Source: Thelocarpon superellum
Taxonomy: Eukaryota
Length of the DNA: 51,504 nt
NCBI GenBank assembly: GCA_026025795.1
Contig: JAPEUG010000087.1
Coordinates: forward strand, 1-51,504
Direction of reading: 5' to 3'
Shown here in pieces: positions 1 through 34,936 of the stretch. A program made the translations under genes and the position numbers. The first letter of the stretch is position 1, and each line of letters starts with the position of its first letter. Below the pieces are notes generated by a model that was not told the origin of the DNA, did not search any database, and was given only the letters and a program-made list of their open reading frames with translations.

Positions 1-787
1 ATGGCATGACTACCTACTACAGGGAGTTCGGACTCTGGCTTCGTCCACTTCTTCAAACGCCACCGTCAGCGGGTCGTATGACGATCCGGAGTCCGGGACC
101 GAGGTGGCCAGATCGGAAGCATGAAGTTGTTGGGCGGATGGTGGCAATAACCCCTAGACCGGCCAATGGCCAGCACGATATCTGCCCACGAGGGCTCCGA
201 TTGTCAGATGTCTGGCACAATTGGTCGCGTTCTTGGGTCATATAATTAATTGAACTCTTGCGTCGGTCGTTGGAGGTTGCCATTTGCCTTGCTTGAACAT
301 GCGTGGACCATGAACGTGCCATTCGCATCACATTGCACGTCTCATGAAAGAACCCATGAGACAACCCATGAGAGAGGGTGGATCGGCGGGTGCGTGTGCC
401 ACGCCACACGGTGGTCCCTGATGGTGGCGGCAGTGGCCGAGTGGCTGCCACCTGCAGGAGAATGGAACGACGAGCGCTTCCTACTAGGTAAGTCTTGCTC
501 GCCCTCCGTACAGTGCAAAGATCATTGTACGAAGCACTTCGTACGAAGCACGAATACTCTGACGCCCGTGGCGCCACATGCCACCGTAGTACTCGCGAAT
601 GGTAGCCCCGCGGAGGTGGGTTCAGTTAAGCGTCTTCAGCAATCTAATGACGTCTACGAAACTGAGATGTTTCGGACGTTCCATTGGGGCATGAATTCGA
701 ACATTTGTAGACACCCCGTCCATCGTGCCAATCTTTTCCGTGTCAAGCATTGGCGCATTGGACGATTCCAATTGCCTCCATCCGTAC

Positions 788-1706
788 ATGGCCCATGGAA
801 GCACGGAGGAGAATATTGCTCCCTCCATCGCGGTGAACCGACTGCACTACGCATTTCCCGACGGCACCTCTGGTCTCCACGACGTCATCCTCGATCTGCC
901 ACCACGCAGTCGCACGCTCTTGATTGGCGGTAAGGACGAACTGGGGCGCCCAGTTTCCTGGTCCTCGTCGAGGCCGTGCTGACGCGCCACGCCTAGCCAA
1001 CGGCGCCGGCAAGACCACCTTGCTACGCCTACTCTCCGGCAAGCGTCTCGCACCGACGGGTACGGTCAACATTGCGGGCGTCGATCCCTTCAGCCATGGC
1101 TTGAAAGGCGTGACCTACCTCGGGCTGGAGTGGGTGCTGAACCCGGTCGTGCGCACCGACATCGATGTGCCCACGCTGCTGTCGTCCGTGGGGGGCGACT
1201 ACTACTCGGCGAGACGAGATGAGCTGGTTGAGATTCTCGATATCGATCTGGCGTGGCGCATGCATGCCGTGAGCGATGGGGAGCGGCGACGTGTCCAGCT
1301 CGCCATGGGTCTGCTGAGACCGTGGAGCATCCTGCTCTTGGATGAGATCACGGTCGATTTGGATCTGCTGAGTCGGAGCAATTTCTTGCACTTCTTGAAA
1401 CGGGAGACCGAGTCGAGGCCCTGTACCATCGTCTACGCCACGCACATCCTCGATAATCTGGCAGACTGGCCCACGCACCTGGTGCACATGTCGATGGGCC
1501 GCGTGAAAGAGTGGGGCGCGGTCGAGGATTTTCGCGTCGATCAAATCGCCCAGACGGGCAATAGCCAGCTCGGCGAGCTCGTGCTGACCTGGCTGACGGC
1601 AGATTTGAAGAAGAGGGGGCCCCGCGGAGGCCGGGGTACCGAGGGGAAGACATACCAGTCCATGGAAGGACTGGGCGGCTACGGCAACGAGAAAAGTCGT
1701 TCATGA
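788..1706 (+). CDS. CAF16: Soluble ABC ATPase, CCR4-associated factor 16-like (2 exons, intron 930-996)
   Basis: Splicing GTAAGG...CTGAC...CTAG joins LLIG to ANGAGKTT (Walker A). The protein also has the [13 protein letters not shown] signature, LLLDE Walker B and YATHI switch. It has a single NBD and no TM segments. Confidence 0.85.
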
Positions 1707-1812: not shown

Positions 1813-4551
1813 TCATGCGGAGGAAGCTTCGCCGCTGGACTTGTGTAAAATTGGAAGTCGAACGGTGTAGATGCGTACCGAGGTATCCTCACTCACCACG
1901 GCCAATTGATGAGAGGTCGTTGTACCGTCGGACTCGCTCGCGTCTACTCCATCGAACGACTTGCTGCCCGGTCTCCAGGCCACTTGCGTGACCGATCGCG
2001 AGGGCCCAATCCTGTCGTGGGCGGAACATTAGCTGAAGTGACATACCAGGTGGTATGGATCGGCTCTCGTACCTCTTGTCCAATGTAAAGGAATCTTGAA
2101 TCGCGAGAGAGTCTCGGGCCAGAATGACGAGCTGCACGGTGCCATCCTCGAGACCCAGGACCAGCAGCAGTCGCTCTCCCAGCGCATGAGGGAAGAAGGC
2201 AAGGGAGGTAACAGGGCAGCCCGCAGAGATTGTAGTCTTGCATTGGACCTCCTCACCCGGTGAGTTGGCTGGAAAGGCCCATATCTTGGCCTTGGGAAGG
2301 ATCAGCGTCCGCGCAAAAAATCGACGTAGAGCCGCCTCACCGTTTTGTCCCGACTGGCTGTGGCAAACACCCGCGGGCATGGAGCGGGGGCCCAGGACGC
2401 GTCGAGAACCATGCGCGAATGCCCCTTGGATTGCGAGAAGACCGGCCCATACAAGCCAGACTGGGTCGCTCCAGCCCTCTTGAAAACGCTCCATTGCCGA
2501 TCCCGACCGACACTGAGTAGGTATTGATCATCATGCGAAAATTGCAGTCGCGTCACGGTCAACGCATGCGCAGTCAGCGGCGGCTTGATCTCGCGCCAGC
2601 TGGCCGTGTCAAACAGCCGGATCAGCGCATGTTCGATGGAGCTAGCTCGACACGCCGTGGCCACCACCGACCCGTCATGACTTGACGCCACCGCCGAGAT
2701 CTCGTACCCATGACCGTAGAGCTTCTCCATTTCGGGCCATAGCGTGTGACGTGCCAGATGGTCCTCGAGCGGAGGATGATCGATGTTGAGGGTGGAGCGG
2801 CGAGACTTGGCGCCGGGATCGACGGCTTCTCGCTCGTCACCCACGTCTTGCACGACCAGCTCTTCATCGTCCGCAACTGGAGTGGCCTTGTTGGACAAGC
2901 CGAGAACGGGCACATTGGCAGCATCAGGCATGTGGGACCGCGCGAATGTCTTTGTGCCACAAAGTCGTCCCAGGAGGTATGCTACCGTCCGGGGCTCTTC
3001 GAAGACGCGGAGGAGCTTCTCGTCCGCACCGGAAATGAACCGAGACGCCGGCATGGTATCGATACAATTCAGATCATAGCCGTGGATCTGTGGTCGCGCG
3101 AACTCGTGCCACGAGTCTACGTGGGCGGGCTTCTTCCACTCGGCGAATAGTCTCGTCGTCTGGTCTGCACTAAGGTCCGTCAGCGTCGGCAGCACTGGGC
3201 GCGAAGCTGTGAGGACAAACCTCGTCGTGAGTAAGTAGGAGCCATCTTTGGCCCATGCCGTACCGGAGATGGCCTTGGTATGGCCCGACACCGCCACTCT
3301 TGGGAGCCATGTATTCTGCTCGGCGGCTCGTTGCCACAATCTCCAGCTGCCACTCCTCCCTAGGCTGGCAACGGCGGTGCCGTTTGGCGACCATAGACCA
3401 ATCCAGAAGCCGCCTGTACTTCCCGTCGCCGTCGTCGATCCCTTTTGACCGCTGATCTCGCCCAGGCGCGTTGTACAGACCCAGACCCCCGAGGCCTGAT
3501 CCGCCTCCCATATCGCCAGGGAGTTGTCTGCGGAAGCAGACAATAATTGCAAACCCCCTCCGTGGCTGCACCAGGCGGTCGTGTACACCCAGTCATCGTG
3601 ACCCAGCAGTAAGGCTTCAAACGTCACTGAGTAAGTCGGAAATGGGTGTTGAAAGCGATGAGCTTTGTTGGATAGTGACTTTTCAAAACCGCCCAACACC
3701 ACTTGTCCTGCTACTGCGTGGGCTGGGGGCAGGTCCTCTCCTTGATGGATCCGCCACAGTCGGATGTATTTATCCTGGCTAGCCGACGCAAGTAGCAGAT
3801 CGCCACGCTTCCCAGGGAATTCCGGCGTCAGGGCGAGTGATCGGATCCATCCTTCATGCCCAACCAGGGCGAATTGAAAGGAAAACATCAACGGTTGCTC
3901 CGGCTTAGCGGGATGGGTAACATAGATCTGGACCGTGCTCGCTGTACCGGCCACGGCCAGGAGGACAGGGGCTGTAGCATCGTCTGTGAGAGGAGCCAAG
4001 GCCAGTGCTAATGGAAGGAAGGCTGGTCGTAGCTCGATGGTTTGGACGAGCGAGACCGCGGCTTGGCCGTCACGACCATCGAGCTTCCACAGCTTCACGG
4101 ATTTATCCGCGGATCCAGAAGCACAGATGCCGCTGTGGTCCTCGAGGGTCAAGACATTGATCGAGCTTTGGTGCTCGGAAAGCACAACGACCGATGAGAA
4201 GCCTGCCGGGGTGGAGGCATCTTGTCTCCAGAGACGAATGGTTTTATCCACAGAGCCACTCAGGAGGAGAGTCTCCTTCAAGGACATGCAGTGCCAGAAG
4301 CGCACCACCGTCACCTTCGCCGAGTGTCCGGCGAGCAAGGCAAAGACGCCTCTTTGGCGCTCTTCCTTTGCTTGAGAGGTTACAACGTGTGTGGGGAGAA
4401 CCCAAGGAAGACTGAGACTCACGAGAGGCTTCCACACGGCAATGTTATGATCGGCGCCAAAGGCCAACAGACCAGTGGAGGCATCCCAGTCTGCGGCGGC
4501 CGGGTGCCTGTTTCCTCCGACGGCCACGAAGTCGGGCTCGATGGAAATCAT
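1813..4551 (-). CDS. ELP2: Elongator complex subunit 2 (double WD40 propeller), 5 exons
   Basis: Motifs include GGNRHPAAADW, GHEGWIRSL, LASASQDKYIRLW, WHEFARPQIHGYD and LWPEMEKLYGHGYE. Introns lie at 4366-4422, 3170-3220, ~2292-2341 and ~2012-2072. The spliced C-terminus reads QVAWRP...LAVVSEDTSVRIY...SSA* (stop 1813-1815). Confidence 0.93.
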
Positions 4552-4809
4552 TGGGAGGCTGTGCTATATCCCCATCACGGTTGTCAGCCGGCATCGCCAG
4601 CATCGCAAAGGAGCAATGCTGCTTTACTTTGCGTCGTGGGGTGGAAATGTTGGTGTGTTCCTCTCCGTATTCTCGTCTAAGCTTCCGTCGCTTTGATCTT
4701 GAGACGCACAAGAACAAACAATCGACGCTCTTTCCATGACCTCAAACGCAGGCGAGCCGGCCAATTATCTTCTGCTTCCGAGACCGATGACCTCTCACTG
4801 ACCCTGAGG
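4552..4809. promoter_or_regulatory. Probable bidirectional promoter shared by ELP2 and URM1
   Basis: Only 258 bp separate the divergent start codons. Confidence 0.6.
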
Positions 4810-5281
4810 ATGACGGAGATTCTCCCTTCTGATGCCAACAAACAGCCATCGGCCAACACGGCGCCTTTGCCCATCGTTGTGGAATTCGCGTAGGTGTCTT
4901 GAATCGTTGCATCTAACACAGCTCTAAGCCCGTCTTTAGGGGTGGCCTGGAGATGCTCTTCTCCAACAAGAGGCGTCATGAGCTGTCCATCCCTGATGTC
5001 AACGATGACGGTACTCCGACCAACGTCGCCTTGCTCGTGGACTTCCTCTGCGATCACGTCATGCGCGACCCGCGGAAAGAGCTCTTCGTGCTCGACGGCA
5101 GCGTGTAAGCATTGACTGCTCTCGTAGACGAACGGTTCAATGAATACTGATGCCGTGACCTAGTCGACCGGGGATCTTGGTCCTCATCAATGATGCCGAC
5201 TGGGAATTGGAGGGAGAGGAGAAATACGAACTGAAGGCCGACGACAACATTCTGTTCGTGTCTACGCTGCACGGTGGATGA
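4810..5281 (+). CDS. URM1: Ubiquitin-related modifier 1 / sulfur carrier for tRNA U34 thiolation, 3 exons
   Basis: Spliced product: ...[19 protein letters not shown]...[49 protein letters not shown]. The C-terminal STLHGG is diagnostic. Two canonical introns. Confidence 0.95.
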
Positions 5282-5501
5282 GGCTCAAATCCCAAGTACG
5301 ACTTGATGAGGGTGGGCGAGCAATTCTCCCTACGGCCCTACCGGCCTACGGGCCTCGATGCAAGGCGTAAGATACATCGGATATCTCCATGGTCTCTCCA
5401 AGGCCCTTGGTCCCCATTTCCCACCGCAGGCGCCCAAGCATCCTTTCAAACTCCGAGCCAATACGTCCATGTCGTCCCAGCCCTGGGCATAATCACCGTC
5501 T

Positions 5502-7730
5502 TCAATTTTTCGGGACCTGCAAGTTCGCTGTGTCGGCGCGTGTTAGTTCCTCAACCGGCTCCTGTGGGGTACCAATGCCGGGCATGGGTGAAACCACCCC
5601 GCTCAAAGGCACCGGAATCTTGATGTCTTCCGGTGAATCGGGCACGATCTTCTCTGGGAGGTTCGGAATGCGGATCCGCTTGGTCTCGTTGTTGTAGCTG
5701 GCCGGAATAATCTGTGGCGGGTCAGTCGCGATCGGCCATGGATCGTCCTTGGCCGGTGATCCCACCTCAATAATCTCGTTTCGCGGAAACTTCAGGCTGG
5801 GTATGTCCGCGGCGTTACAGGCCATCAGATATCCATACAGGACCCGCAAGACGCTCTCGTGCGCGATGATGAGCAGGTCGTTCTTCTCCCGCTCAAGCTC
5901 CAGGATGACAGGCTCGAGTCGTACGGCGAGGTCGTGGTAGGACTATGAGGGCGTGAGCAGGAAGGATCATGCCGCGGCCATGACTTTCAAGTACTACCTA
6001 CCTCAGCCCGTGGATATCGGTGATGATATGGATCTTCCTCGTGCTTGGCCACCTCCTCGGGAAATTCACGGCGAATCGCTCCTTCCGACATCTTGCCACA
6101 GACGCCGGGGTTGAGTTGACTCATTTGCGACCGCTGACGCACCTTGAAGCCACGATCCTTGAGATACTGTGCCGTTTCTGTCGTACGCCGCCGCGTCGAG
6201 GTCCAGACGCTGAGAGGCTTTAGCGGCGGCGCGGAGCCATCACGATCGACGATTGCTTGTCGCTCCTCAGCACGGTGTCGCAAGAGGGTGTCTGCCATCT
6301 TCTTGGCATAGTCGTATCCCCCTTCCGAAAGGGATGCGTCCGTTTTGTAGAAATCCTCCTCGCTCGCGACACCGGCCTAAGAGATGGGTCAGTTGAAGGG
6401 CCGACGGCCCAGGTGACGCGCTTACCCTTGCGAAATATGTTTGGCGTGACTTGATGTGTAGGTTCAGGAGGTAGAACACGATCCGATGTGACAGGTAGCC
6501 AAACGAACAGTTATTCACCATCACTCGTTCACCTGCGTTGATCATCTGCCGTCAAGGATGCTTAGCTCACGAGTGAACTGGGAAGGCCATCACAGGAAGG
6601 GCAGCGAACCTTGACGTAATTCAGGTCGGATTCTTCCATGGTCTCGAAATGCGGAATCTTGGCCGACACTCGACGCAGATAGTCCTTGATGGCATCGTTT
6701 GGGTCCCAGCCCATGTACTGGCATGACCATCAATATCAGGGTGAAGATCACCTCTCGGCTCTCCAAGTGTCTACGTACATCGGGGGAGGAAATCTTGACG
6801 TTTCGAACATTTTCTTCAATGATTTTCTCATCGTCGCACGCGGACTCAATGAATAGCGTCTGGTGGACATCAGCAATCTTGGAAGATTTGCGGTCATCGG
6901 ACTAGGACAGCTGACCTGGACGCCATGTTTGAGAAACTCGTGAGCCAACGCCCTTCGCCCGGCGGCCACGGGATTCACGGCGTCATAGATGGCCACTTGA
7001 CCATTCTCGTGGTTGAGAAAGTAGAGAATGTCCTCACGACACTTTTTCAGGATCTTACTGCGCAGTAAAACCGAGGATGGTGAAGCTGTTCCGCTGTGGC
7101 GTCAGCTGGACGGCCAATCCATTAGCTCCACGAGAAGTCCGACGAACCATTCACGAAGAAGTAGTCGTGCGGAAGGTCATCGCCATCGCCGACAGTGGCA
7201 CGACGGTAGTCCCCAAGGTGGAAAACCCTCGTCGTGACGCCTAGCCTATCGTCCATCGCCGTCAGTGTAAGGAGCATAACGCAGATGGGACCGCAGGACG
7301 ATGACCCACCATCGGAGATATCTCGCCAGGGCGACGGAGGTATGCCTGACCGAGACACCGCGAGTGTTAGTGTATGGATGTGTGCGCCAAGTCCTGCAGG
7401 CAGTCGACACGGTGATTCACTTACGTTTTGCCCCGCGCGGGCAACCCGACGGTGGAGATGATGATCCGGCCCGAGTGGAAGAGTCGACCCGACTCAGTGC
7501 TATACAGCTGCGCAGGAGCCATGGCCGTCTTCTCCGGAAGATCATGGATGGCATCCACCATGACGCTCGATTTCCGTCGAAATCGAGGCGACGTAGCCGC
7601 CAGCCCTCCGTTCCTGCAGGAGACATCAGGCCGAGAGCTTGCTGACGTGCAACCCGGGCGCAGCGAAGACGAGCATGTAATAGAGCTGGAGCATTCACGC
7701 AGGGACAAGGACTCACGTGAGAGTATCCAT
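5502..7730 (-). CDS. 6-phosphofructo-2-kinase/fructose-2,6-bisphosphatase family protein (YLR345W-like), multi-exon
   Basis: Motifs include PAQLYSTESGRLFHSGRII...VGLPARGKT (P-loop), RVFHLGDYRR, YHHRYPRAESY and LLIIAHESVLR. The ATG at 7730 (MDTLT|NGGL...) is inferred from a GTGAGT...CTGCAG intron. Confidence 0.85.
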
Positions 7731-8409
7731 GATGGGACTTGGTGCTGTGGAGTCCTTTCATTCACGGTTCTGTCGCCGGATACTCGTGGAGCGAGGGGGA
7801 AGTGGGGAAGGTCGCGAGCAATGCAATCATTAATGACAGCGGATAATTTGGGGGTATGAGGTCCCCGGTTTATCCCCTGGATATATCCAAAGGCCGTTGG
7901 AAGACGCCGAAATCCATCAGAATCCTATAATGCTGAAATCATGTCATCTGTGATTGAATCCCGGACCGTGCGACCCCAAGTCCGTCCATCGAGTACCTTT
8001 GGTCTGGTCCCTGGTCCCTGTTGTCGGAGTCTACGGCGGAGGTTAGGAATCGGCGGTTCTGGAAACGGTATGCCATACAGCGTCTACGTGCAGTTTCCGA
8101 AACGTTGCCCAGACATTGTGCTCTCCAATCTTGTTCTTATGTAATACGAGAGCTAGCGTGGCTGGAGAGTCTGGCGCGACGACCAGGAAACCGCAGCTGG
8201 CCGAAAAGTTCAGTACCTGCCTGGCAAACGCTCGTTGGCCCGTAGCTCCAAGTACACGGTAACCATCGTTGCCAGTCAACGCCGTGACCGCTTCCACTTC
8301 TTCCGCAGGGTGTGTCGTGACGGATCCGACAACCCCAGCTACATCGTGAGGGGTACCGCTGGGGCGTGTAGGTGATCCCGTGGAATCCAGCCGTCGGACG
8401 ACGTTCACC

Positions 8410-9623
8410 ATGGCGAGCGAAAAGCCGACGTCAATGTCTTTCCTGGCCGATAATGCGATCGCGGCCGCCTTCCGGGACACGTGGGCATCCTTCTCGGCGC
8501 ATCGAGAGGCATTGGGATTGAGCAATCCGGGGTCGGTGGAGAACATTGCGAAAGAGGTCCAGAAGGATGTCTTGCTCAACAACTACACCTTCACCGGCCT
8601 CCGAGCCGATCTGACCAAAGCCTTCGGGGTCACGCCTCTGTTCCAGATCTCGCATGCCTTCTCCATGGGCTCGCAGGCGCTCCCTCCCTACACCTTTGCG
8701 GCGCTGTACGGCACGAGTAATGTGCGGCACCCCTTCCTCTCTCCTTGCTCTTGATGAGCGGGGACGACTTCGGCGCTGACCGGTCGAGCAGGTATTGCTC
8801 CAAGGGAACGTCGACAATGACGGGCAGCTCTCCGCGCGGGCCAACTACCGATGGAGCCGGGCCTTTGCCACGAAGACCAACGCGCAAATTGCCCCCGGCC
8901 CTGGGCAAGCGATGTTACAAGTGGACAACGACTATACAGGCGATGACTTCACCGCGTCGCTGAAGGCACTCAATCCCTCGATCCTGGATGGCGGTCTTAC
9001 CGGCATCTTTGTCGGGAGCTACCTTCAAGCTGTCACCCCCAGTCTCGCGCTGGGCGTCGAGGCCGTGTGGCAACGCGCCGGCCTGAACCTGGGGCCCGAA
9101 ACCGCACTCTCCTACTGCGCCAAATATAAAGGTGACGATTGGATTGCGAGCGCCTCGCTCCAGGCACAGGGCGCCCTCAGTACATCATACTGGCGAAGGA
9201 TTACCGACAAGGTCGAAGCCGGGGCGGATCTGAACCTCCAGTTAGTGGGCCTGGGACGCGGACGTGGTGGAGGGTTGATGGGCGGCGCGATGGGGAAAGA
9301 GGGGCTTGCTACTCTCGGCGCGAAATACGACTTCCGCGCATCAACCTTCCGGGCACAAATTGACAGCAATGGCCGATTGGGATGCTTGCTCGAGAAGCGA
9401 TTAGCTCCCGCGGTCATGGTGACGTTTGCTGGCGACATGGACCATTCGAAGGTAAGTTGATGTAGCGCGTGGTTCGGACATGCACGGCAGCTGCTGATTT
9501 CCGGCCGTGCTGCAGCAACAAGCCAAGATTGGCTTGGCCGTCTCCATCGAAGCGGCAGGCGAAGAAATCATGGAGCAACAAGAGCGAGCGGCGGCATCGG
9601 CTGCGCTTCCACCTCCATATTAG
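8410..9623 (+). CDS. TOM40: Mitochondrial outer membrane translocase pore Tom40, 3 exons
   Basis: Motifs [36 protein letters not shown] and [18 protein letters not shown]. The last exon ends ...LPPPY*. Confidence 0.95.
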
Positions 9624-17996: not shown

Positions 17997-20876
17997 ATGG
18001 CCGACTACGAACGACGAGGCCGCGGCGGCCGCGTTTTCAATCATCGGAAGCGGCGCTATGGAGGTAGGTCCTGCTGGCGCGTTGAAGCTCGAGAAGGAAG
18101 CGCGTCCTGACGTGACCGGCTCCCACCACAGACGAGGAAGACTTTGACCATCGACCACAACGACGGCGTTACGAGGAGCCGCTGGCGCTGAAGCTTCGCA
18201 AGCAGATGCTGACCATCGCCGAATCGGTGTGTGATATATGACCGATGCCGAAAGTGGCGTGACTGATCGCCTGCATAGCCTTTGAAGAGGCCTGAAGACG
18301 AAGTTAGTGCCATCGCCAAGATTGTGGCGGAGAACTACTTCGACGAGGAACTTCAGACGGGCTTCTACAGCCTGCTCCTGCAACTGTGCGTCATGGCTTC
18401 CAGGCTGCCGCTGGTCCCGGCTAATGTGGGACAGTGTCGTCGAGCAGCCATTCAAGATTCCCTTTGCAGCTGCCATCGTCCTCGTCGCCAACCCGAAAAA
18501 ACCCGAGGTGACGCAAGAGGTCCTGGTACGCGCGGGAGCGGCGGCACAAAAACACCTCGAGGCTGGCGCGTGGCGTGAATTCAAGCTGGTGTTGAGATTC
18601 CTGGCCTGTCTTCAAGGCTTGTTCGAAGATGCGGGAGTCTTTCCCATCCTGGACGAGCTCTTCTCGCGAGCCGCTGATATGCAGACCGCATCATCTGAGG
18701 ATGTACGTTTCATACCGCGTCCACGAAGACGAGGCTTACAATTGAGCGTAGGCACTGGGCTTGGAGCTGGTCAAGATTATTCTCTTGACCCTCCCCTACG
18801 TCCTCACCTCCCCACACATCAGCCCCGGCCAAGAGGCCTTGGTTTTGCTCGACAAGACGGACATTATCGCCTCTACCCCGCATACCCTTGAAGCATTGGT
18901 GGATCCCTACTCTGGAGAGGGAGGTGACAAACCGCGCGAGCCGGCCAGTGTATGTTCTTCCCGCATGAGACAAAAGCTGCGGAGTCACTGACGTTCACGT
19001 TCTCATCTAGCTCATCAGCCTGTTGCAGAAACAGCTCCAGAACGAGGCCACTCGGGGTTGGGAATTCGCGTGTATTCCCCGCGCCTGGAAGACAGCGGCG
19101 GGAGAGGACGAGGAAGATCCGTTGATCAATGCCCAAAAGCATCCCTTCCCGTCCCTCGTCGTCCCTAGCGTGGTGCACCAGGGATCAAAGCCCATCTTTC
19201 CCGAAATGTTCTTTTCCGTATACGCGGATCAACCAGTCGAGGTACGTCTCGAAGGCGGACATCAACGATCATGGCCGTTGACAAGCTTCAGACCGTTCCC
19301 CCGTTAACGGATGTGGCTTCGTCAATCCTTCGGGATTCTCTCGTGGACACGATCAACATCCTGGATTACAACCGTAATGCGACCGCCAAGTTCCTCATCG
19401 ATATGGACGGGTATTTCGCCCCCGGCACCTTTGTCAAGCGCGCGACGCCGTTTGATCGGCTGAAAGAGGTGGCGGGAGATCGATCGACATGGAAGCCTGA
19501 AGATGTAGCGGTTGACGCCGTCTTCTCCCAACTCTTCCAACTGCCAACGCCGGAGCACAAGCTGATCTACTATCATTCCGTCCTCACCGAGTCCTGCAAG
19601 ATTGCGCCGGCCGCCATTGCGCCGAGTCTTGGCCGTGCGATTCGGACGTTGTATAAGTACATCGACGTGATGGATCTGGAGCTCAGCTATCGGTTCATGG
19701 ATTGGTTTGCGCATCACTTGAGCAACTTTGGATTCACGTGGAAATGGACAGAGTGGTAGGTCGCCAGTTGTGGTATTGATCTCGCTCCACTCATCTTCGT
19801 TACAGGACGGACGACGTCGAGCTACCGATGGCGCATCCGAGGAAGGCATTCATGATTGGCGCGCTCGACAAAGAAATTCGTCTCAGCTTTGCCCAACGCA
19901 TCCGTGGGACGCTGCCGGAGCCATACCAAGCCTTGATCCCTCACGCCAAAGAGCAGGACACACCAGACTACAAATTCAACACAGAGGGTGAGTGACACGG
20001 GTGATGAGGCGACTCTCGCTAAGCAAGTGAACAGCCAATCCGTATTCTGCCGAAGGCAAGGAGATGGTGGTCTTGGTTCGGAAGAAAGCGGCCGACGATG
20101 AGATTGAGCCTGTGACGCAACGGGTTCACGAGAAGGCGGCGTTGGCGGGGGTGTCGGAGCCACTCCTGATCTCGACGGACATCTTCGTGACGGCCATCTG
20201 CTTCATCGGATCCAAATCGCTCTCGCACGTGCTCTCGGCCATCGAGCGGTGCAAGGAACGCCTATTGGCCATTGGGCCTCGATCGGAGGTGGCGCGCAAA
20301 CAGATCATCACGTCGGTGATGTCGTACTGGAAAGACCAACCCGGCATCGGCGTCAACATCATCGACAAGCTCCTCAACTACACGATCCTGACGCCCATGT
20401 CCGTGATCGAATGGGTGCTCCTCGAGCACAATGAAGCCGGCGCCGCCCTAACGCAGAGCCACATCTTCGAGATGGTCTGGACGACTGTCTTCAAAGTGAC
20501 GAACCGCGTTCGGCAGATCGTGGCGGCGCGCAACCAAGCCGCCCTTCCAGTGGCGCAAGTCAAGATCCTAGACGACACGCTGCAGCACGAACGACACGAG
20601 CAAGCGGCCATGTTCAGCGTGATTGACGACACGCTGCTGGCCTTCGCGCAGGGGTCCAAGGACGAGATGCTGGATGCGCCGTCGGCCGAGGACGGGCTGT
20701 TGCGCGCGTGGGGCGAACGCTGGCTGCGCGTCTTCCGCCGCAAGTTTGCCGTCGAAGAGGCCATGTTTATCGATGCCATGGCCGATGCCGCTGCCGCGAC
20801 CAGCGATGGTGATGAGGCTCACAATGGAGCTGGGGCTGGGGCGGAGACGGGGAACATGGAGGACGTGATTGAGTAG
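17997..20876 (+). CDS. CBP80: Nuclear cap-binding complex large subunit (CBP80/NCBP1/Sto1), multi-exon
   Basis: Basic N-terminal NLS (RKRRY). Conserved segments VEQPFKIPF, RFMDWFAHHLSNFGFTWKW, KEIRLSFAQRI and IGSKSLSHVLSAIER. Confidence 0.92.
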
Positions 20877-20983: not shown

Positions 20984-23277
20984 TCAGTATCCGTTGACGG
21001 CTGCATCATCTCCATTTCCACCATCACCACCACCACCATCACCAGCTGCAGCAATGTCAGAGCGAAAGCGAGGATTATGCGCCGCCCTCCGTGCCAGCAA
21101 GTCACCCACAACCTCGACGCGGGCCTCCTTGCGTTTTTCGCGGCGCACGTAGCGCAAGAGATGCAGCGCACCAGAGGGCGTGACGCCCTCAATGCGACGG
21201 GCCTGGCCGACGGACTCGGGGCGCGTGTGGCGCAGCAGTGCCCGTTCCTCCGTCGACAGGCCCGCGATGGCGCCGTAGTCGAGACCGCTGTCAAGGCGCA
21301 GGTTCTCGTCGCGCTGGAAGGCGCGGATCGCGGACCGCTGCTGCGTGATGTACGGCTCGTAGATCGCTTCGATCGTCACGCGTGATTGGGCACGGGCGGA
21401 GAAGGTGGCGATGCCGGGGATGTGTGCGGTGAGATTCGTCGTGCTCACGCCCGGTAGGCGGAGCAGGTCCAGTCCTGTTCGTAAAGTGGAGTCGCTGTTG
21501 ACTTGGTAGCCGAGGCCGCGCCATGTAGGTGCCGGGCGTCGGGTTGAGGTCAGCAGTTCCGTGAGCGTGTCCATCTCGGCGACCTGGTCGCGGAAGTGGC
21601 GCCATCGCGTCGAGCTCACGACGCCTGCTTCGTGCCCCTTGCCTGTCAGCCGCAGGTCGGCGTTGTCGGCGCGCGAGCTCATGCGGAATTCGCTGCGCGA
21701 GGTGAACATTCGATACGGCTCCGACACCCCTTTGGTGATGAGGTCGTCGATCATGATGCCGATGTAGCCGTCACTTCGGGAGAGTATCATCTCCGGCTTT
21801 CCTTGCGACGCGAGACCTGCGTTGATCCCGGCGATGATCCCCTGCGCTGCCGCTTCCTCGTAGCCTGTCGTGCCGTTGATCTGGCCCGCGAGGAAGAGCC
21901 CTTTGATGGCTTTCGATTGCAGCGATGCCCTGAGACCACGCGGATCCACATAGTCGTACTCCACGCCGTATCCGGGTTGGATCATCTTCACGTTTTCTAG
22001 GCCCCGGATCGTCTTCAACAACTGTTCTTGCGCATCCGCCGGAACCGTCATGGAGATTCCATTCGGATAGACCACGTCTGTATCGAAGCCCTCCGGCTCG
22101 AGCCAGATGATGTGTTTGCTCTTATCTTGAAATCGAATCACCTTGGATTCCAGCGACGGACAGTATCGTGGACCTTTGACAGTCTCGCGGATATGAATCG
22201 ACTTGTCAAGATTGGCACGGATAATGGCGTGCGCCGCTTCGTTCGTGTGAGTGCCGTAGCAGGTCAGTTGATCCTTGACCGCCACCTCATCGCTGAGATA
22301 GCTGAACGGTGTCGGAGGGCTGTCCCCTGGCTGGGCCTCCAAAACTCCAAAATCAATCGTCCGGCCATCTAGTCGTGGCGGTGTCCCCGTCTTCAGCCGG
22401 CCGAGCCGGAATCCGGCGTCTCGAAGAGATTTGCTGAGACCGAATGTGGCCTCTTCGCCCATTCTGCCCGAGGGGAAGACGTCCAGCCCTGGCCCAGGTT
22501 AGTCTAGGTTCAGGGCGGTGTTGGAATGCAATCCTACCAATATGTATCTCGCCCCCAAGAAACGTCCCAGTCGTGATGACCACATGGTTGGTTGGAATCA
22601 CTTCTCCCGCTTCCAGCCGTACCCCGGTGATCCGTCGACGAGCTCCCTCATACTCCGGATCTCCATCTACATCTTCTTGGACCACAATGTCGGCAACCTT
22701 GCCCTCGAGAATAGAGACGTTAGGATAGGCTACCAGTTCCGCTTGCATGTGCTTTTTGTACAGCTGTCGATCAATCTGTGCTCGAGGTCCCTGGTCTTTC
22801 GTCAGCGTCCGTTGTCATGGTCATCCGTCATGAGCTGCCTACCCAGACTGCCGGTCCTTTCTTTGTGTTGAGAACGCGGAAATGAACGCCGGCCTTATCT
22901 ACAATCCTACCGCAGAGGCCGTCCAGCGCATCAATCTCTCGGATAATGGTGCCTTTCCCGATGCCTCCGAAGCTCGGATTGCACGAGCAAACCCCGATAT
23001 TGTCGAGCTTGGGAGTCACCAATGCCGTTCGCGCACCAGCGCGGGCTGCCCCTGCGCTGGCTTCAGATCCAGCATGACCACCTCCAATCACCACGACATC
23101 GTACGGCCTGGTTATGGATCTGCGTTAGCTCGGGATAGACCAGCCATGGTGACGAGAGGCGTACCGGGCGTCGTGTGATACGGTGGCAAAGCGCCTTCGA
23201 GCGAGTCTGATAGACCGGGCCCGAGGGCTATGGCCCCACAGCCACCGCACCGCCTTGCCACAACCTGCTGTAGCCAT
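20984..23277 (-). CDS. MTO1: Mitochondrial tRNA U34 carboxymethylaminomethyl modification enzyme (GidA/MnmG family), 4 exons
   Basis: Arg-rich presequence. Motifs [75 protein letters not shown] and [13 protein letters not shown]. Confidence 0.95.
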
Positions 23278-23579: not shown

Positions 23580-25569
23580 TCACGGTAGCTGCGCCATCTC
23601 TTCCAGAAACGTCGCGCTATTGTGCACGGTCGTTCCGCCCAAGACCACCCGAACTCCTGGCGAGCTTGCATTGACCTGGGCCACCATCTTGGCCTCTTCA
23701 AATGTCACCCCGCCCACGATGAAGATGACGATATCCTGGGGCTTGTCTCTTGTCGTGCCCCCGCCTTCGACGAAGGGATATTGCTGGTCGCGAAGTCGTC
23801 CTTTGATCAGGTTTTGCAAGGTCAGCTCGAGCCGCGGCGAGTGTTGCGTGTAGACATTTTCCACCCCCTTAAGCCCTTTAAATCGCTGGCGTGCCCCCGA
23901 GAAAATGGATGACGACTCGAAGAGGTCGGACAGGCCACCTGCCGCGGGAGCCGACTGTAGAGAGTGGTGATAGGCGAGAAGCTTAGGAATGAGGCCGACT
24001 CGATTCTGCGGAACCTTTCCCGCTGCTGAGAGCAAGTCGAGAAGTAGAGCCAGGGCATTGGATGGATGTCGCTCGTACCGCAGCGAGTACAGCGCCACCA
24101 GTCGTAACTTGTTGTCCGCCGGCACGTCACGGGACTGGATCAAGCGTTGGAGATTCTGAAGCAGCTGTCAGCGGTTACCTCTTCTTGATAGCCCTGTCTT
24201 GCCCGCTCTCCACGTACCTTGAGATCGTTGTTGTGGTTGTCGTTACATGCTAAGCTCTGCTCCATCTCACTGACTTCTAAGAGGCTCTCTTGCCCCACAC
24301 GACGGCTCAACTCCCCAACCAAAGTGACGTGTTTGCTCACGTTGCCCGATAGCTTTCGAAATTCTGGATAATCTTCCACGAACCGTTTCATGTCCCCAAT
24401 AGATTCGATGTTGGTGCTGCTCTTGGTTTTGGACTGATACTGTTCCACATAGTCCTTGATGTTCCCGCCGAGGTCCCCGAAGTTCATGTACATGTTCTTC
24501 TTGAAAAAGGGGTCTTGGTCTTGCGCTAGCACAATTTGCTATTTAAGCATTAGTTCTCCAATCACGGCATCACTTGAAGTGGGGTTGGCGGACCTTTAGC
24601 TCGGGCCGGACGTCGGGGACCTCGCTCAGATTCACCTTTCCGTTGTCGATTCCGAGCAGTTCATGTACCATGGCCTGGTAGGTCCATTGGGTCAAGAGCG
24701 GCGTGATCGGGTCATCCCGCCGATCCAGGATGAGGAGGATCGGAGGCGTATCGGTCTTGCGAAAATCAAACAGCTGCTCCTCTTGCGTCATATGATATCG
24801 CACTTCCGTCGCCAGCTTCTTTGCGAGCAAACTATTCTTCTCATATCGGATCAACGGCCGCTTCTTCAGCGACAACAAGAGCGCCAAGACACCCTCGGTC
24901 GACCGTTGCAGCGCGTCCGAGTTCCATAAGTCCGGACTGCTGCCCCATAAACGGTATTTGGGATAGGCCAGGTTGAGTGCGAATAAGTCGGGGTTGACGA
25001 CGATGTAGTCGGCGAAATGCTCCTGCACTTGCCGCACCACTTCATGATCATCGGCCTCGGCCAGTCGCTCAAGGGACGACTTCCGAATCACGTTGCTGAA
25101 ATCTGAAGCGGTTAGGGCGGACCGTGCGGGAACTGCGGGATCTTCCACATACAGATGTAGTAGTCTCCGTATCTGGGGTCCCGAAACTCGTCGATCAGGA
25201 ATTGGACGGACTCGGGCGACGGACGGACAAAGCAGAGGCAGCGCAGGTGTCGCATCTTCTCGCGTGCTTGGTTATCCAGCCGACTTTTGCCGTGGTCAGC
25301 GACAGCGAGACTGGTGATAGCAGACGACATACTCAATCAAATATACCTCGTGATTGAGGAGAGTGGATTGGGTGATGGCGGTCGACACAATCGAGACCTG
25401 TACCGCCGTCAGAGTCTGCTTTACGTGTGTTCCCGTCGCTGTTTAGTAGACCCACCGTCTCACTGTCGAGCAATAAGATCTTCATCTTGGCTGACGGGGT
25501 CCCGGACGCCCCGTCGCCCGTGGCCACCATCTTCGAGACATAGCCCGAGACGGCGAGCAGCACGTCCAT
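23580..25569 (-). CDS. VPS45: Sec1/Munc18-family vacuolar protein sorting protein 45, 6 exons
   Basis: Motifs MKILLLDSET, MRHLRCLCFVRPS, LILDRRDDPITPLLTQWTYQAMVHELLGI, SGNVSKHVTLVGELS and ENVYTQHSP. Confidence 0.94.
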
Positions 25570-26098: not shown

Positions 26099-28175
26099 AT
26101 GTTGCCCTACATCAACTACCGTGGGCCTCCCACTTCGCTGCCTCGGCTCCGTCTCTACTTCGACTGACCGGCTCTTGCCCAGCGTTCGAGTACCTCTCCA
26201 GCGTATCGGGTACCTCGTCAGATGAAGGTAAGTCGCCCACCACCCAGGGCACTCCCAGATGTTTGACAGCGACGGGACCTTGCAGCGAAGATCATCGTCT
26301 CCTTCCTGCTCTCCTATCCGTTGGCGGGCATCCTCAAGCGAATCCCGGATCGACGTCCGGCCCTCAAGAACCTCTTCATCATCGGGTACGCATATTTCCC
26401 CTTGATTTCCTCGGCCCCTGCTAAGATCCTGCAGGGTCTCGATTTTCTACCTTGTGGGGCTTTTCGACTTATGGGCCGGCTTCCGTACCCTCGTCATCGC
26501 CGCCGTGGGCGCATATGCCATCGCGGCGGGAATCGATGGCCCTTTCATGCCATGGATCGCCTTTGTCTTCCTCATGGGCCAGATGTCCATCAGCCACATT
26601 GCACGACAGCGTGCCAATGCCCCTGACGTCATCGACGTGACCGGTAGGTGGAATCCTGCCATGTTCGATGAGCCTGAAGGTTGTTGACCGGTCCCAGGTG
26701 CCCAGATGGTGCTTGTGATGAAGGTGTGATTCTTCATGCATTCATCGCCCTAGCAATACTGATAACGGTGTGACTGCAGCTCACGGCATTCTGTTGGAAC
26801 GTTCATGATGGCCGGCTCCCCGAGAAAGACCTCTCGGATTTTCAGAAGGAGCGTGCCCTACGCCAACTGCCAGGTCTTCTCGATTATACCGCCTACGTGG
26901 TTCGTACCTGGGCCTGCGCGGGCTAAGAGATTGCCGATGCTGAGTCAGGATAGTTCTTCTTCCCGTCGCTGCTGGCCGGGCCGGCCTTCGATTTTGTACA
27001 ATATCAGCGTTGGATCGAGACCAGCATGTTCGACATCCCCCCCGGCACTGACCCGACGCTGCGCCCTCGCACCCGCAAGCAACGCAAGATCCCGCGCAGC
27101 GGCACTCCGGCGATGTTCAAAGCCGTGACGGGTCTGCTGTGGGCGGCGGCCTTCTTCCAGTTTTCTCAGTGGTTTACCACGGACCTCTTACTGGGCGATG
27201 AGTATATGCAATATGGTTTGCTACGACGAGTCTGGATCTTGCACATGTTTGGCTTCACGGCACGGCTAAAGTATTATGCCGTCTGGGCCCTAACGGAAGG
27301 CGCCTGTATTCTGTCGGGCCTCGGGTACAATGGAGTTGATCCCCAGACGGGCCGCGTCCGATGGAATCGCCTGCAGAATGTGGCGCCCTGGCCGCTTGAG
27401 ACGGCTCAGAACACCCGAGCTTACCTGGAGAGCTGGAACATGAACACCAATCACTGGCTCCGCAACTACATGTACCTCCGGGTGACGCCTAAGGGCAAGA
27501 AGCCCGGCTTTCGCGCGAGTCTGGCGACCTTTGTGACCAGCGCCGTCTGGCATGGCTTTTGGCCTGGGTACTATCTGACCTTTGTGTTGGCTAGCTTCTT
27601 GCAGACCGTGGCCAAGAGTGAGTGCCCTTGTGCTCGCTTCTCTTCCAGGCTGCTCGACTGACCAATGCACGATAGACTTCCGCCGCCATATTCGGCCCTT
27701 CTTCTTGACGCCAACCGGGGCTGCCACGCGATTCAAGCCGATCTATGACTTTCTCTCCTTCCTGGCTACCCAGTTGTCATTCTCGTTTGCCGTGGCCCCC
27801 TTCATCCTCCTTGATCTCCACTCCTGTCTACTCGTCTGGTCTCGAGTCTACTTCTATTGCATCGTCGGCGTCGCCTGCTCCGTAGCTTTCTTCGCCTCAC
27901 CGGTGAAGCCCTTCCTGATCAAGACCCTAGAAGCCCGCAATGGTGCCTCATCTCCTCAGAAACGGCCGGGGCTGGCGGATCGACGGAGCACGAGTTCGCG
28001 CAGCACCAGCTCGAACGGAGAGGCTGGAAATGTCTTGGGTCTCCCAGGAGACCCGGTGAAGGATTTCGACGAGGCGCTGCACGAGGTGAAGGAGGAATTG
28101 GAGGCGCGACGGCAGGCTGGAGCCACCGTGACCAAGGCTGATGTGGACAATGTCAAGCGCGAGAAGGGATTGTGA
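26099..28175 (+). CDS. ALE1: MBOAT-family lysophospholipid acyltransferase, multi-exon
   Basis: Spliced N-terminus MLPYINYPFEY...SFLLSYPLA. Further motifs GAQMVLVMKL, WNMNTNHWLRNYMYLR and SAVWHGFWPGYY (catalytic His). Confidence 0.9.
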
Positions 28176-28740: not shown

Positions 28741-29965
28741 ATGGGGTCCAAGATCCAAAAGACCATTACCAGATTGCAGGGAACGTAAGTGCGATCGTGC
28801 TGAGGGGAAAACGGTACCGATGAGCAAGGCTGACAATGTTCTGGCCGCAGCATCGAAGAAGGCCAGTACTATGAGGCGCACCAGCAGCTCCGGACCATAG
28901 CGTCGCGATACGTGAAGCAAGAGAATTACAGTGCCGCCGTCGACATCCTCTTCTCTGGCGCCCAATCGCTGTTGAAGGCTGGCCAGGGCGGGAGCGGCGG
29001 AGACCTGTGTCTCTTCCTCGTGGACGTCTACAAAAATGCCGAGCTCAAGCCGGACGCAGGGACGAAAGGTTGGTGGATGAGATGCCGGACGCGGAGGTAC
29101 ATCGGCTCAGATCGGTGCTGACGGGGGTTCCCGGGTCAGAGAAACTCCTCACGCTCTTGAGACTCTTCTCCCCGGATGAGCCCAGCCGGAAGAGATTCAT
29201 CGCGGATATGATTGCATGGTCGTCGGCCTTTGGGGAGTTTCCTGCTGGAGACCCGGAGCTGCACCACGTGGTGGGTACGCTCTACAGCGAAGGTATGCAC
29301 CGTGGTTCCAGACGGAAGAAACGTGCCTACAGCTCTGGCAGACAATAACGTTTACGACGCGGAACGACATTTGACGCTGGGGACGAAGGATTCGCCTGAG
29401 CACTTGATCCGGCTCGAATACGATTGGTATAGCGAAGACGACTCCCACACTGCTGCACTCTATGCCGCTCGAGCCGTGTTTCCCTATCTCTTGATCGGCA
29501 ACGTCCGTGACGCGACGAGATCCCTGCAATTGTTCACCAGTCGCCTGCGTGAGACGAACGGGAGCTTGAGCGTACAAGAGGTCGGCAGTGGGAGCGTGGA
29601 GGCGAAGCTCTACCCAAGCTTACCGCTGCTTAATTTCTTGAGTCTGTTGTTGTTGGCGGTCCAGCGAGGGAGCGCGGATCTGTATCGACAGCTCATGAAT
29701 CACTATGCCACGTACCTCCAGGAGACATCCAGCTGGGGCGAGGTGAGTGTCTACCTATGAGTTCGATCTCCATGATGCTGACGGTTTGTCATGGCAGTCG
29801 TTAGAGCTGGTCGGAGAAATGTATTTTGGCGTCCCCGTCCGACGACAGACGAATCCTTTGATGGATATGATGGGGAGCTTGTTCGGGGGTGCCGGGGGAC
29901 CAGCTGCACCCCCGACCAAATCACGCAAGATCCAAGCCGCACCGCCGGCAGCAGATTTGGACTAG
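28741..29965 (+). CDS. GET4: Golgi-to-ER traffic protein 4 (tail-anchored protein targeting), 5 exons
   Basis: Spliced motifs IEEGQYYEAHQQLRT, GQGGSGGDL, GDPELHHVVG, ARAVFPYL and LPLLNFL. The C-terminus is YFG...NPLMDMMGSLF...ADLD*. Confidence 0.92.
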
Positions 29966-33363: not shown

Positions 33364-34936
33364 CTAGATGGCAAAGTTGACGGCCAGTGCACCAGCCAAG
33401 ATGCCCATGAGACCCATCTCCATCTTGGTGACGCCCAGGGCGACGGCGGCTCCGGTATGAGTCGGCGTAGTGGAGGGAAAGGCCGTGGCGGAGATGGTAG
33501 GCACGCCAAGCCGACCACCTGTCTCGCCTGGAGAGGCCGTGGCGGCGTTGGTGACCGTACTGGCGCCCGGAACCGCTCCCTTGCCCGAGCCAATCTCCTT
33601 AACGCTCGAGGAGGTTGCGTTGAAGACCGTCTGGGCCAGAGAGATCTCGTTGTTGCCGAGGTCGTACACCACGTAGGCGCTTCGAAGGAAAGGATCGCCC
33701 AACACGGCAGGACCTTGGCCGGCGGGCTCGATGGCGAAGAGACATAGCTGAGCCTCGCCCGAATCGCCGAACGGGCTATCCGTCTGCACCGGGATGGCCA
33801 GCTCCGCCATCGGCACGGAGATGGTGGCGCCCGAGAAGCTAAAGTCCAACGTCTGCGACTTGCTGATCACCGAACAGTCGATCGTTGCCAGTCCTTGCGT
33901 CGGATCGTACTGAGCATCGATGGCTTTGTAGAGCGCCTCGGACAGGTCGTCCGGCAGATAGGCGAGACTGCTGCCCGAGTCTAACAAGACCGCGTCATCG
34001 CGAGCGCCACCAATGCTCTGTCCGCCCAGAGAGAGACCGGTCAGGGCGATAAAGAACTCCTCGGGTTGTGACGATCCAGGATCCAATTGGATTGGCAAGG
34101 TCGACAGGTCGCCATGGTATTTGTCCGTGTCCACCCCGCCGAACAGGATCGATCCCGTATTGGCGTCGAGATCGTTCAGCCAGAGACTGTAGGCCGGGGA
34201 TTGGATCAGGTCTAGGGATACCAACGTTTCTGGAAAGTTCCGGTATTCTTGGGCGTCGCCGAAGATGACTTGCGCTTCGTGATCGGGATAGCCAATGCCT
34301 AGGATCCCCTGCGGAGAAGAGGACGCGTATCCGATGCCAAATTGCATCTTTGGGATGCTGTGGCCGCCAAAGACGAACGTATCCGTCGCGTAATCCCCTT
34401 CGGCGCCGGATGAATCGGCGTACGAGATGTTGAAATTGCTGTTCAGGTAGATGTACGACGAGGACGAGTTCGCGGAGTCTGGACAAGGTGTCAGCCCGAA
34501 AGTCCGCTTCCGTCGCTCCAATGGGGGCACATACAGACGCCAGCGGCTGCGCAGGGATCCTCGCCCGACCGGCAAAGTTGCGAGTTGGGCGCGTTGGTCC
34601 ACAGATCACTGCTGCCCGTGTCGAGGTTGACACTCAGTTGCTGGGGAGGAGTGCCCAGGCTGACATTGGCGACGTAGAGCGATACCTACAATCATAAGTC
34701 GGGCTCTCCAGGGCTCGAGGACTGGGAACCCAACGTACCATGTTGTCGAGGTCTTCCGAGACCGTTTTGATGCTGGCTCGTCGCCGTAATCGATCGCGTG
34801 CATGAGGATCCGACACGTGCTTCCGTTCGATATCCATTCCAATCACGGCTGGCTGGGCGCCGCGTCGCTCGAGCAGTTGGATCGCCTCCGAACTCGCCAG
34901 AGCGGCCATAAAGGCCAGAGCGAGAGCGTCTCGCAT
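33364..34936 (-). CDS. Secreted/GPI-anchored A1 aspartic protease (yapsin/OpsB-like), 3 exons
   Basis: Signal peptide MRDALALAFMAALASS. Catalytic motifs LDTGSSDLW and LLDSGSS, plus AYSLWLND and VLGDPFLRSAYVVYD. The Ser/Thr tail ends in a hydrophobic GPI-type signal. Confidence 0.9.

Follow-up and report, generated by a model that had tools for sequence, protein, structure and literature searches.

A window of 51,504 nucleotides from Thelocarpon superellum (GenBank assembly GCA_026025795.1, contig JAPEUG010000087.1, here analysed as a whole) raises the question of why two evolutionarily unrelated genes whose products act on the same tRNA base, ELP2 (Elongator subunit 2) and URM1 (the sulfur carrier Urm1), should stand head to head across a short spacer. 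By protein search the contig belongs to a metagenome-assembled genome of this lichen-associated fungus, and NCBI taxonomy places the species among the leotiomyceta incertae sedis, in the order Thelocarpales. Elongator makes the 5-methoxycarbonylmethyl or 5-carbamoylmethyl (mcm5/ncm5) side chain and the Uba4-Urm1-Ncs2/Ncs6 pathway adds the 2-thio (s2) group on uridine 34 (U34) of the same three tRNAs (PMC11705076). When one of the two halves of mcm5s2U34 is lost, AAA, CAA and GAA codons are decoded more slowly, with effects on stress responses and, in fungi pathogenic to plants, on virulence (PMC11705076). Our analysis establishes that ELP2 and URM1 form a real and ancient divergent pair, conserved as a leotiomyceta-wide feature rather than a quirk of one genome, and that a functional link between them is plausible.

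The initial annotation had placed the ELP2 start codon at 4551 on the minus strand and the URM1 start codon at 4810 on the plus strand, diverging with 258 bp between them, and this arrangement was confirmed in every detail. The first long open reading frame (ORF) of ELP2, comprising 749 codons at 2302-4551, matches the yeast Elp2 chain 5m2n_A in a PDB phmmer search with an E-value of 9.9e-142 (query 4-739 on chain 5-680 of 788) and mouse/human Elp2 chains at 6e-95 and 7e-89, with the best WD40 match outside Elp2 being much weaker (1.8e-21). WD40 repeats were also recovered by Pfam (2.4e-36), and the public homologues carry the name Elongator complex protein 2; the gene product thus shows the length of about 800 amino acids, the WD40 repeats and the near whole-length similarity that characterize Elp2. 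The deposited protein of 856 amino acids maps from 4551 down to 1816, which places the stop codon at 1813-1815. Its gene model contains an in-frame intron of 57 nucleotides on the minus strand at approximately 4366-4422 (GTGAGT ... AG), which the long ORF reads through, so that ORF-based translations gain 19 residues. Two more introns of the model lie near 2297-2335 and 2030-2095.

The structure of URM1 that we read from the sequence, with three exons and two introns, agrees with the deposited protein of 120 amino acids. Exon 1 ends two bases past the codons for Val-Glu-Phe and is followed by the donor GTAGGT; this first intron occupies an identical position in all 33 exon 1 sequences that could be called among the 40 spacer sequences examined. 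Positions 8-58 of the 96-position Urm1 profile (PF09138) fall in exon 2 and positions 59-96 in exon 3, both above the gathering score, and the solved Urm1 chain 6yuc_G matches exon 3. The protein ends in HGG, with the stop codon at 5279-5281, and hence combines the PF09138 domain with the C-terminal Gly-Gly expected of an Urm1. Certain public URM1 records bear wrong product names, namely 'Nuclear cap-binding protein subunit 1' in Hypoxylon texense and 'Regulator of nonsense transcripts 1' in Venturia nashicola.

JGI metagenome contigs were scanned with an alignment of 12 ELP2 proteins, and the best 80 of the 321 stretches encoding a relative, each with up to 10 kb of flank per side, were taken as the locus set. 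All 80 loci (L-numbers below) show 48-61% ELP2 identity to the window, and the sample therefore represents Pezizomycotina and is uninformative on more distant fungi. A tblastn search with the Thelocarpon URM1 placed this gene directly upstream of ELP2, on the opposite strand, in 66 of the 80 loci; mis-assembly of the metagenome-assembled genome as the source of the pairing was rejected, as the arrangement recurs in 66 independent contigs. Among the 14 loci without URM1, 11 are uninformative, with less than 700 bp upstream or a missing ELP2 5' end, and three (L028, L062 and L067) retain 10 kb upstream of ELP2 from which URM1 is absent. When the loci were grouped into 53 lineages at 90% or greater ELP2 nucleotide identity, the pair proved to be kept in 41 of 44 informative lineages (93%), and in 34 of the 37 with at least 1500 bp upstream when counted by hand.

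These lineages span much of the filamentous ascomycete tree. In a FastTree phylogeny of 85 ELP2 sequences, comprising the 53 lineage representatives and 32 named references, 22 lineages fall in Dothideomycetes (clade support 100) and 12 in the Helotiales of Leotiomycetes, with L028, L050 and L067 forming a Pseudogymnoascus clade. Lecanoromycetes are represented by L002 and L070 beside Acarosporales references and by seven lineages beside a Letharia reference, and Eurotiomycetes by L053, which groups with Thermoascus (86% identity), and L068, which groups with Aspergillus. A further well-supported clade unites L062 with L066, L072, L077 and L080, within a group also containing Leotiomycetes. 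This clade is probably Sordariomycetes, although the label could not be confirmed: it follows from the position of the clade as sister to Leotiomycetes and from the best URM1 matches, which have Sordariales-type names at 74-86% for L066, L072 and L080 and a nameless record for L077. The label draws further on the absence of any Sordariomycete from the 120 best ELP2 names and on the gap that the sample would have for this class if the clade belonged elsewhere. The protein atlas assigns the clade only to the phylum Ascomycota, and its best representatives in the 50%-identity library are a Dothideomycete, a lichen fungus and nameless records. Adjacency and orientation are thus held across distant taxa in five classes, the fifth being the probable Sordariomycetes.

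Named genomes tell the same story. GenBank protein accessions, which run along contigs, served as a proxy for adjacency, calibrated by the window itself (KAI9850116 for ELP2 and KAI9850117 for URM1). Thirteen organisms were common to the 120 best ELP2 matches and the URM1 matches. In twelve of these, the longest contigs recorded for the two proteins are equal in length, which for Zopfia and Pleomassaria is the sign of linkage; the thirteenth, Bipolaris maydis, has clusters with several members and was resolved through its accessions. Consecutive ELP2/URM1 accessions were found in 11 named species: Thelocarpon, Lindgomyces ingoldianus, Dendryphion nanum, Melanomma pulvis-pyrius, Lepidopterella palustris, Kalmusia sp., Piccolia ochrophora, Delitschia confertaspora, Venturia inaequalis (in three accession series), Bipolaris maydis (strains C4 and C5) and Aplosporella prunicola (with ELP2 obtained via the representative search). 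In Sclerophora amabilis, a member of Coniocybomycetes, the two accessions lie 2 apart, making it the twelfth named genome with the pair. The prospect that the pair might be restricted to a single lineage, which the initial annotation had held up as grounds for abandoning its proposal, is refuted by the 41 of 44 metagenomic lineages, by their spread over at least five classes and by all 12 of the 12 named genomes looked up.

A short head-to-head spacer is in itself ordinary in this compact genome, and it is the conservation elsewhere that goes beyond chance. In addition to the 258 bp of the window, ATG-to-ATG spacers in 32 other lineages measure 166-543 bp, all below 1 kb, with a median of 245 bp over the 33 sequences; the longest, at 315-543 bp, come from five lineages of Helotiales, from L051 (Dothideomycete-like, 333 bp) and from L066 (Sordariomycete-like, 335 bp). 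The leading words of a first k-mer screen were rejected as promoter elements, being parts of URM1 exon 1 and its splice donor. A screen of the 33 true ATG-to-ATG spacers against shuffles recovered the 8-mer TAAGCGAG or its complement in 11 of them, against 0.2 expected, with no shuffled 8-mer exceeding 7. Of its 20 occurrences in the 740 kb of lineage representatives, 14 lie within the ELP2-URM1 spacer, two of these on contigs (L012 and L040) that end before URM1 is reached. Ten of the 11 spacers have the word 96-136 bp ahead of the URM1 start codon (367 bp in L011), whereas anything from about 70 to about 410 bp separates it from ELP2. It is in URM1 sense in Leotiomycete-like loci and in ELP2 sense in Dothideomycete-like loci. 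The window has the partial words TAAGC (4678-4682) and TCGCTT (4688-4693), which precede the URM1 start codon by about 122 bp, a distance equivalent to that of TAAGCGAG, and TAAGC occurs in 22 of the 33 spacers against a shuffle mean of 12.2, a count reached by none of 200 shuffles.

A second candidate, the palindrome TTATCGATAA, is present in four Lecanoromycete- or Eurotiomycete-like spacers, where it lies 113-135 bp away from the start codon of ELP2. The core of this palindrome, TATCGATA, is found in the same loci between PFK2 and TOM40 and ahead of the ABC-ATPase gene as well (sites in the table). Its presence in these neighbouring promoters makes it look like a general promoter word, which may be typical of housekeeping genes in these fungi. 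Among yeast-type promoter motifs, CCAAT, TATA, a Gcn4-type site and CACGTG were not enriched in the spacers, and PAC-like and RRPE-like words were enriched only marginally (7 and 6 of 200 shuffles); the window spacer has one CCAAT at approximately 4762. At Rfam gathering scores no RNA gene was detected in the window, its spacer included, and a microRNA match in L031 was dismissed as being at chance level. A four-codon upstream ORF is also present on the plus strand at 4787-4801, with its ATG 23 bp ahead of the URM1 start and TGA as the stop codon; it would be relevant only if the URM1 transcript begins upstream of it. Read from sequence comparison, the spacer appears to be under constraint within classes, and its best motif may belong to URM1 alone.

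The junctions on either side of the pair offer a measure of how unusual its persistence is. In the window a stand-alone ABC-type ATPase gene lies tail to tail with ELP2, and the gene for 6-phosphofructo-2-kinase/fructose-2,6-bisphosphatase (PFK2, the 'PFK' of the initial annotation) lies tail to tail with URM1 and head to head with TOM40. The ABC-ATPase gene adjoins the 3' end of ELP2 in 23 of 40 informative lineages (58%; 18 of 35 by a stricter hand count), all of them Lecanoromycete-, Eurotiomycete- or Leotiomycete-like, and is absent there from every Dothideomycete- and Sordariomycete-like lineage. PFK2 adjoins URM1 in 11 of 31 informative lineages (35%; 10 of 30 by the stricter count), confined to Lecanoromycete- or Eurotiomycete-like ones. 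When the 20-kb neighbourhoods of 11 representatives of the classes were compared all against all, ELP2 proved to be their only common gene under a 300-nucleotide ORF filter, which is longer than the URM1 exons; the tblastn scan places URM1 beside ELP2 in all 11. As the outer neighbours differ between classes, ELP2-URM1 appears to move as a unit.

On the ELP2 tree, under a loss-only reading, ELP2-URM1 was broken 2 times along 17.2 units of branch length at risk, the ELP2-ABC junction 3 times along 9.5 units and the URM1-PFK2 junction 2 times along 6.2 units. The initial annotation had allowed that the pair might be no better conserved than its neighbours, and the answer is divided: the share of lineages is higher, at 93% against 58% and 35%, but these figures reflect 2 against 3 and 2 events, do not differ significantly in rate (p about 0.2-0.3), and involve comparators that are both tail to tail. 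Tail-to-tail junctions are less stable than divergent ones according to Davila Lopez, Martinez Guerra and Samuelsson 2010 (PMC2871058), and the flank comparison consequently falls short of proving special selection. Of the divergent controls that the initial annotation named, PFK2-TOM40 is scorable solely in surviving blocks, where PFK2 remains in the locus, and there 9 of 10 informative clusters have kept it too. In Lecanoromycete- and Eurotiomycete-like loci conservation therefore extends to all five genes of the block, and its order and orientation (ABC-ATPase, ELP2, URM1, PFK2, TOM40) are kept in L002, L018, L042, L052, L053, L055, L064, L065 and L068.

On balance we favour, with somewhat better than even confidence, the explanation that the pair is ancestral and that constraint on a shared promoter is the main cause of its persistence. 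The head-to-head pair would have been inherited from the common ancestor of the main filamentous ascomycete classes (leotiomyceta). With the start codons only 166-543 bp apart, both core promoters would have to share or interleave one short and probably nucleosome-free region, from which ELP2 and URM1 would be transcribed divergently. Basal expression of an Elongator subunit from the mcm5/ncm5 arm and of the Urm1 sulfur carrier from the s2 arm would then likely be broadly coordinated. The arrangement may have persisted chiefly since a breakpoint within so short a spacer would harm at least one promoter, which would be sufficient by itself for long persistence; selection for co-expressing both arms may add to this.

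Several observations count against this explanation. The arrangement has been lost in two lineages, the Pseudogymnoascus clade (L028 and L067) and L062, the three pair-less loci amounting to two losses because L028 groups with L067 as its sister, separately from L062; ELP2 faces a co-directional gene with a WHIM1 domain in L028, an ATG43-like gene in L067 and ORFs without assignment in L062. A fourth accession series of Venturia inaequalis has the two accession numbers 25 apart (RDI83490 and RDI83465), and in Aspergillus fumigatus Af293 the accession of PFK2 (EAL85529) is followed directly by that of ELP2 (EAL85530), which leaves no URM1 record in between, URM1 being either unannotated there or located elsewhere. 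The roughly 2.7-fold lower break rate of ELP2-URM1 is not significant (one-sided p 0.24 and 0.29 against the two flanks, 0.19 pooled). The spacer has lengthened to 315-543 bp in Helotiales, and in 5 of 6 spacers there TAAGCGAG stays near URM1, at 99-136 bp, and not in mid-spacer (367 bp in L011), which fits a URM1-specific element and separable promoters. The exact word is absent from the window and from classes beyond the Leotiomycete- and Dothideomycete-like ones, and the 33 spacers share no motif common to all classes. Finally, ELP2 is one of six Elongator subunits.

The initial annotation had gone further and proposed a selected, co-regulated two-gene module, a reading that is plausible but unproven. 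In such a module adjacency would keep the mcm5 and s2 arms in a fixed ratio, with spacer elements regulating both genes. It draws on the action of both products on the same U34 of tRNA-Lys, tRNA-Gln and tRNA-Glu (PMC11705076), on the tendency of conserved fungal divergent pairs toward functional linkage (PMC2871058), on the retention of the pair in 41 of 44 lineages despite outer neighbours that differ on both sides from class to class, and on the spacer-specific TAAGCGAG, which occurs in two classes in either orientation, as expected of a protein-binding site. Against it, the pair does not break significantly less often per unit of branch length than the flanking junctions, the distance of TAAGCGAG is nearly fixed to URM1 only with no element common to all classes, and the Pfam scan of the window detected none of the other five Elongator subunits, UBA4, NCS2 or NCS6. 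We also count against it that ELP2 and URM1 are unlinked in Saccharomyces cerevisiae, on different chromosomes (YGR200C and YIL008W). The pair is likewise absent from Table 1 of PMC2871058, which gives the top pairs conserved beyond Pezizomycotina. We consider a module of this kind plausible but rather unlikely.

Historical accident followed by neutral persistence would instead require only independent promoters, few rearrangements in a small interval and a coincidental pathway link. All three junctions do show 2-3 break events with no significant difference in rate, the five-gene block kept in Lecanoromycete- and Eurotiomycete-like loci includes the functionally unrelated PFK2-TOM40, and Table 1 of PMC2871058 contains many deeply conserved divergent pairs without an evident functional link. 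However, the pair survives over ELP2 branches that add up to about 17 substitutions per site, nothing else in the 20-kb neighbourhood is common across classes, and the spacer-specific conserved motif argues for constraint on the spacer. Moreover, by a rough, uncomputed estimate a random neighbour would belong to the same pathway of about 25 genes well under 1% of the time. We regard pure accident as unlikely. Equally doubtful is the boldest possibility, that the spacer has served for more than 300 million years as a dedicated regulatory node, which sets the mcm5:s2 ratio in filamentous ascomycetes and is read by a factor binding TAAGCGAG, so that splitting the pair would uncouple both modifications and alter codon-specific translation under stress.

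The features on which these comparisons rest, together with the other genes of the window, are collected in the following table.

Table. Features of the Thelocarpon superellum window and of compared loci; positions in loci are those of the respective locus.
Feature	Sequence	Positions	Strand	Basis
ABC-type ATPase, stand-alone, left neighbour	window	250..1706 (start approximate)	+	Pfam ABC_tran 1.1e-11 on 924-1703
ELP2 (Elongator subunit 2) coding region	window	1813..4551	-	ORF, Pfam, PDB, deposited model
Divergent spacer, presumed shared promoter region	window	4552..4809 (258 bp)	.	direct reading
URM1 exon 1	window	4810-4889	+	direct reading, deposited model
URM1 intron 1	window	4890-4939 (50 nt)	+	direct reading, deposited model
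URM1 exon 2	window	4940-5104	+	translation, Pfam Urm1 1.8e-7, deposited-protein mapping
URM1 intron 2	window	5105-5163 (59 nt)	+	direct reading, deposited model
URM1 exon 3	window	5164-5281	+	Pfam Urm1 5.9e-18, PDB 6yuc_G 1.1e-17, deposited-protein mapping
PFK2 (6-phosphofructo-2-kinase/fructose-2,6-bisphosphatase), right neighbour	window	5500..7924 (ends approximate)	-	Pfam 6PF2K, His_Phos_1
TOM40	window	8350..9460	+	Pfam Porin_3 1.2e-55; PDB Tom40 9i6b_A 9.4e-85, 5o8o_A 3.7e-83
Cap-binding-complex large subunit (MIF4G_like)	window	19169-20873	+	Pfam
GidA/MnmG-type gene (MTO1-like)	window	20987-22498	-	Pfam GIDA 9.2e-87 and both C-terminal domains
Sec1-family protein (VPS45-like)	window	23583-25271	-	Pfam
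MBOAT acyltransferase (ALE1-like)	window	26954-27658	+	Pfam
GET4	window	29212-29757	+	Pfam
Aspartyl protease	window	33367-34605	-	Pfam
Replication factor C subunit	window	36843-37640	+	Pfam
Rce1-like CAAX protease	window	38172-38789	-	Pfam
NmrA-like protein	window	39911-40903	-	Pfam
GH18 chitinase-like protein	window	50109-51335	-	Pfam
TATCGATA outside the ELP2-URM1 spacer	L018	6819		
TATCGATA outside the ELP2-URM1 spacer	L042	6868, 13568		
TATCGATA outside the ELP2-URM1 spacer	L054	7276		
TATCGATA outside the ELP2-URM1 spacer	L055	6432		
TATCGATA outside the ELP2-URM1 spacer	L061	13701		
TATCGATA outside the ELP2-URM1 spacer	L065	6919, 13575		
TATCGATA outside the ELP2-URM1 spacer	L079	13392		
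Gene beyond URM1	L031	4068-6281		
Gene beyond URM1	L029	4678-6705		
Gene beyond URM1	L080	6296-7360		
Gene beyond URM1	L072	5606-6689		

The immediate neighbours are readily recognized: the PDB matches of the ABC-type ATPase are exclusively ABC nucleotide-binding proteins, and Aspergillus 6-phosphofructo-2-kinase proteins map onto 5556-7603 of the window. Some public gene models fuse PFK2 with ELP2 across the opposite-strand URM1; the 'ELP2' of Sarea resinae, with 1151 amino acids, bears 6PF2K and His_Phos_1 domains, and the 90% cluster of the Aspergillus turcosus ELP2 includes true 6-phosphofructo-2-kinase proteins. In L061 TOM40 is shifted to the opposite side. A gene located 3-6 kb beyond URM1 is common to Helotiales-like and probable Sordariomycete loci and to no other class, which fits a sister relationship of these two groups. 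Farther along the window, 16 kb from ELP2-URM1 and beyond the 10-kb flanks of the compared loci, lies the MTO1-like gene; the mitochondrial enzyme of the MTO1 type likewise modifies wobble U34 of tRNA. Several long ORFs at 11.9-18.9 kb and 41.6-47.8 kb gave no Pfam match.

The pair is reminiscent of a phenomenon already known in fungi, where genes of related function are over-represented among conserved divergent pairs that are separated by short spacers (PMC2871058). ELP2-URM1 shares with those pairs the head-to-head orientation, the short spacer, the Pezizomycotina-wide conservation and the functional relation, and differs in not being among the approximately 50 pairs of Table 1 in that source, though its supplementary lists may include it; most pairs in the table are retained in Saccharomycotina or Taphrinomycotina as well. 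Its closest parallels there are SNZ1-SNO1 (pyridoxine synthesis), RAD16-RAD7, HSP60-HSP10 and histone H2A-H2B, which similarly combine one process, a short bidirectional spacer and long retention (PMC2871058). Unlike the products of these pairs, those of ELP2 and URM1 work in different enzymatic arms, whose single meeting point is the tRNA substrate. The partners encoded by SNZ1-SNO1, RAD16-RAD7, HSP60-HSP10 and H2A-H2B each form one physical complex, and we know of no binding between the ELP2 and URM1 products. A further comparison is provided by adjacent ribosome-biogenesis genes of Saccharomyces cerevisiae, which are likewise neighbouring housekeeping genes of one process, and whose co-expression depends on adjacency, through a bidirectional promoter where the pairs are divergent (summarised in PMC7653285). 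There co-regulation is experimental, whereas for ELP2-URM1 it is inferred, and neither Elongator nor Urm1 occurs in that article.

Our full-text literature searches found no paper describing the adjacency of ELP2 and URM1, which apparently represents an undescribed example of this known phenomenon and adds a clear same-pathway case to the catalogue of conserved divergent pairs. As one component of each arm is tied to a spacer of about 250 bp across most Pezizomycotina, the pair also furnishes a simple experimental handle, comprising one short promoter, lineages in which the genes are naturally split and a candidate cis-element. Should co-regulation not be found, the case would still illustrate how long a bidirectional spacer can hold genes together.

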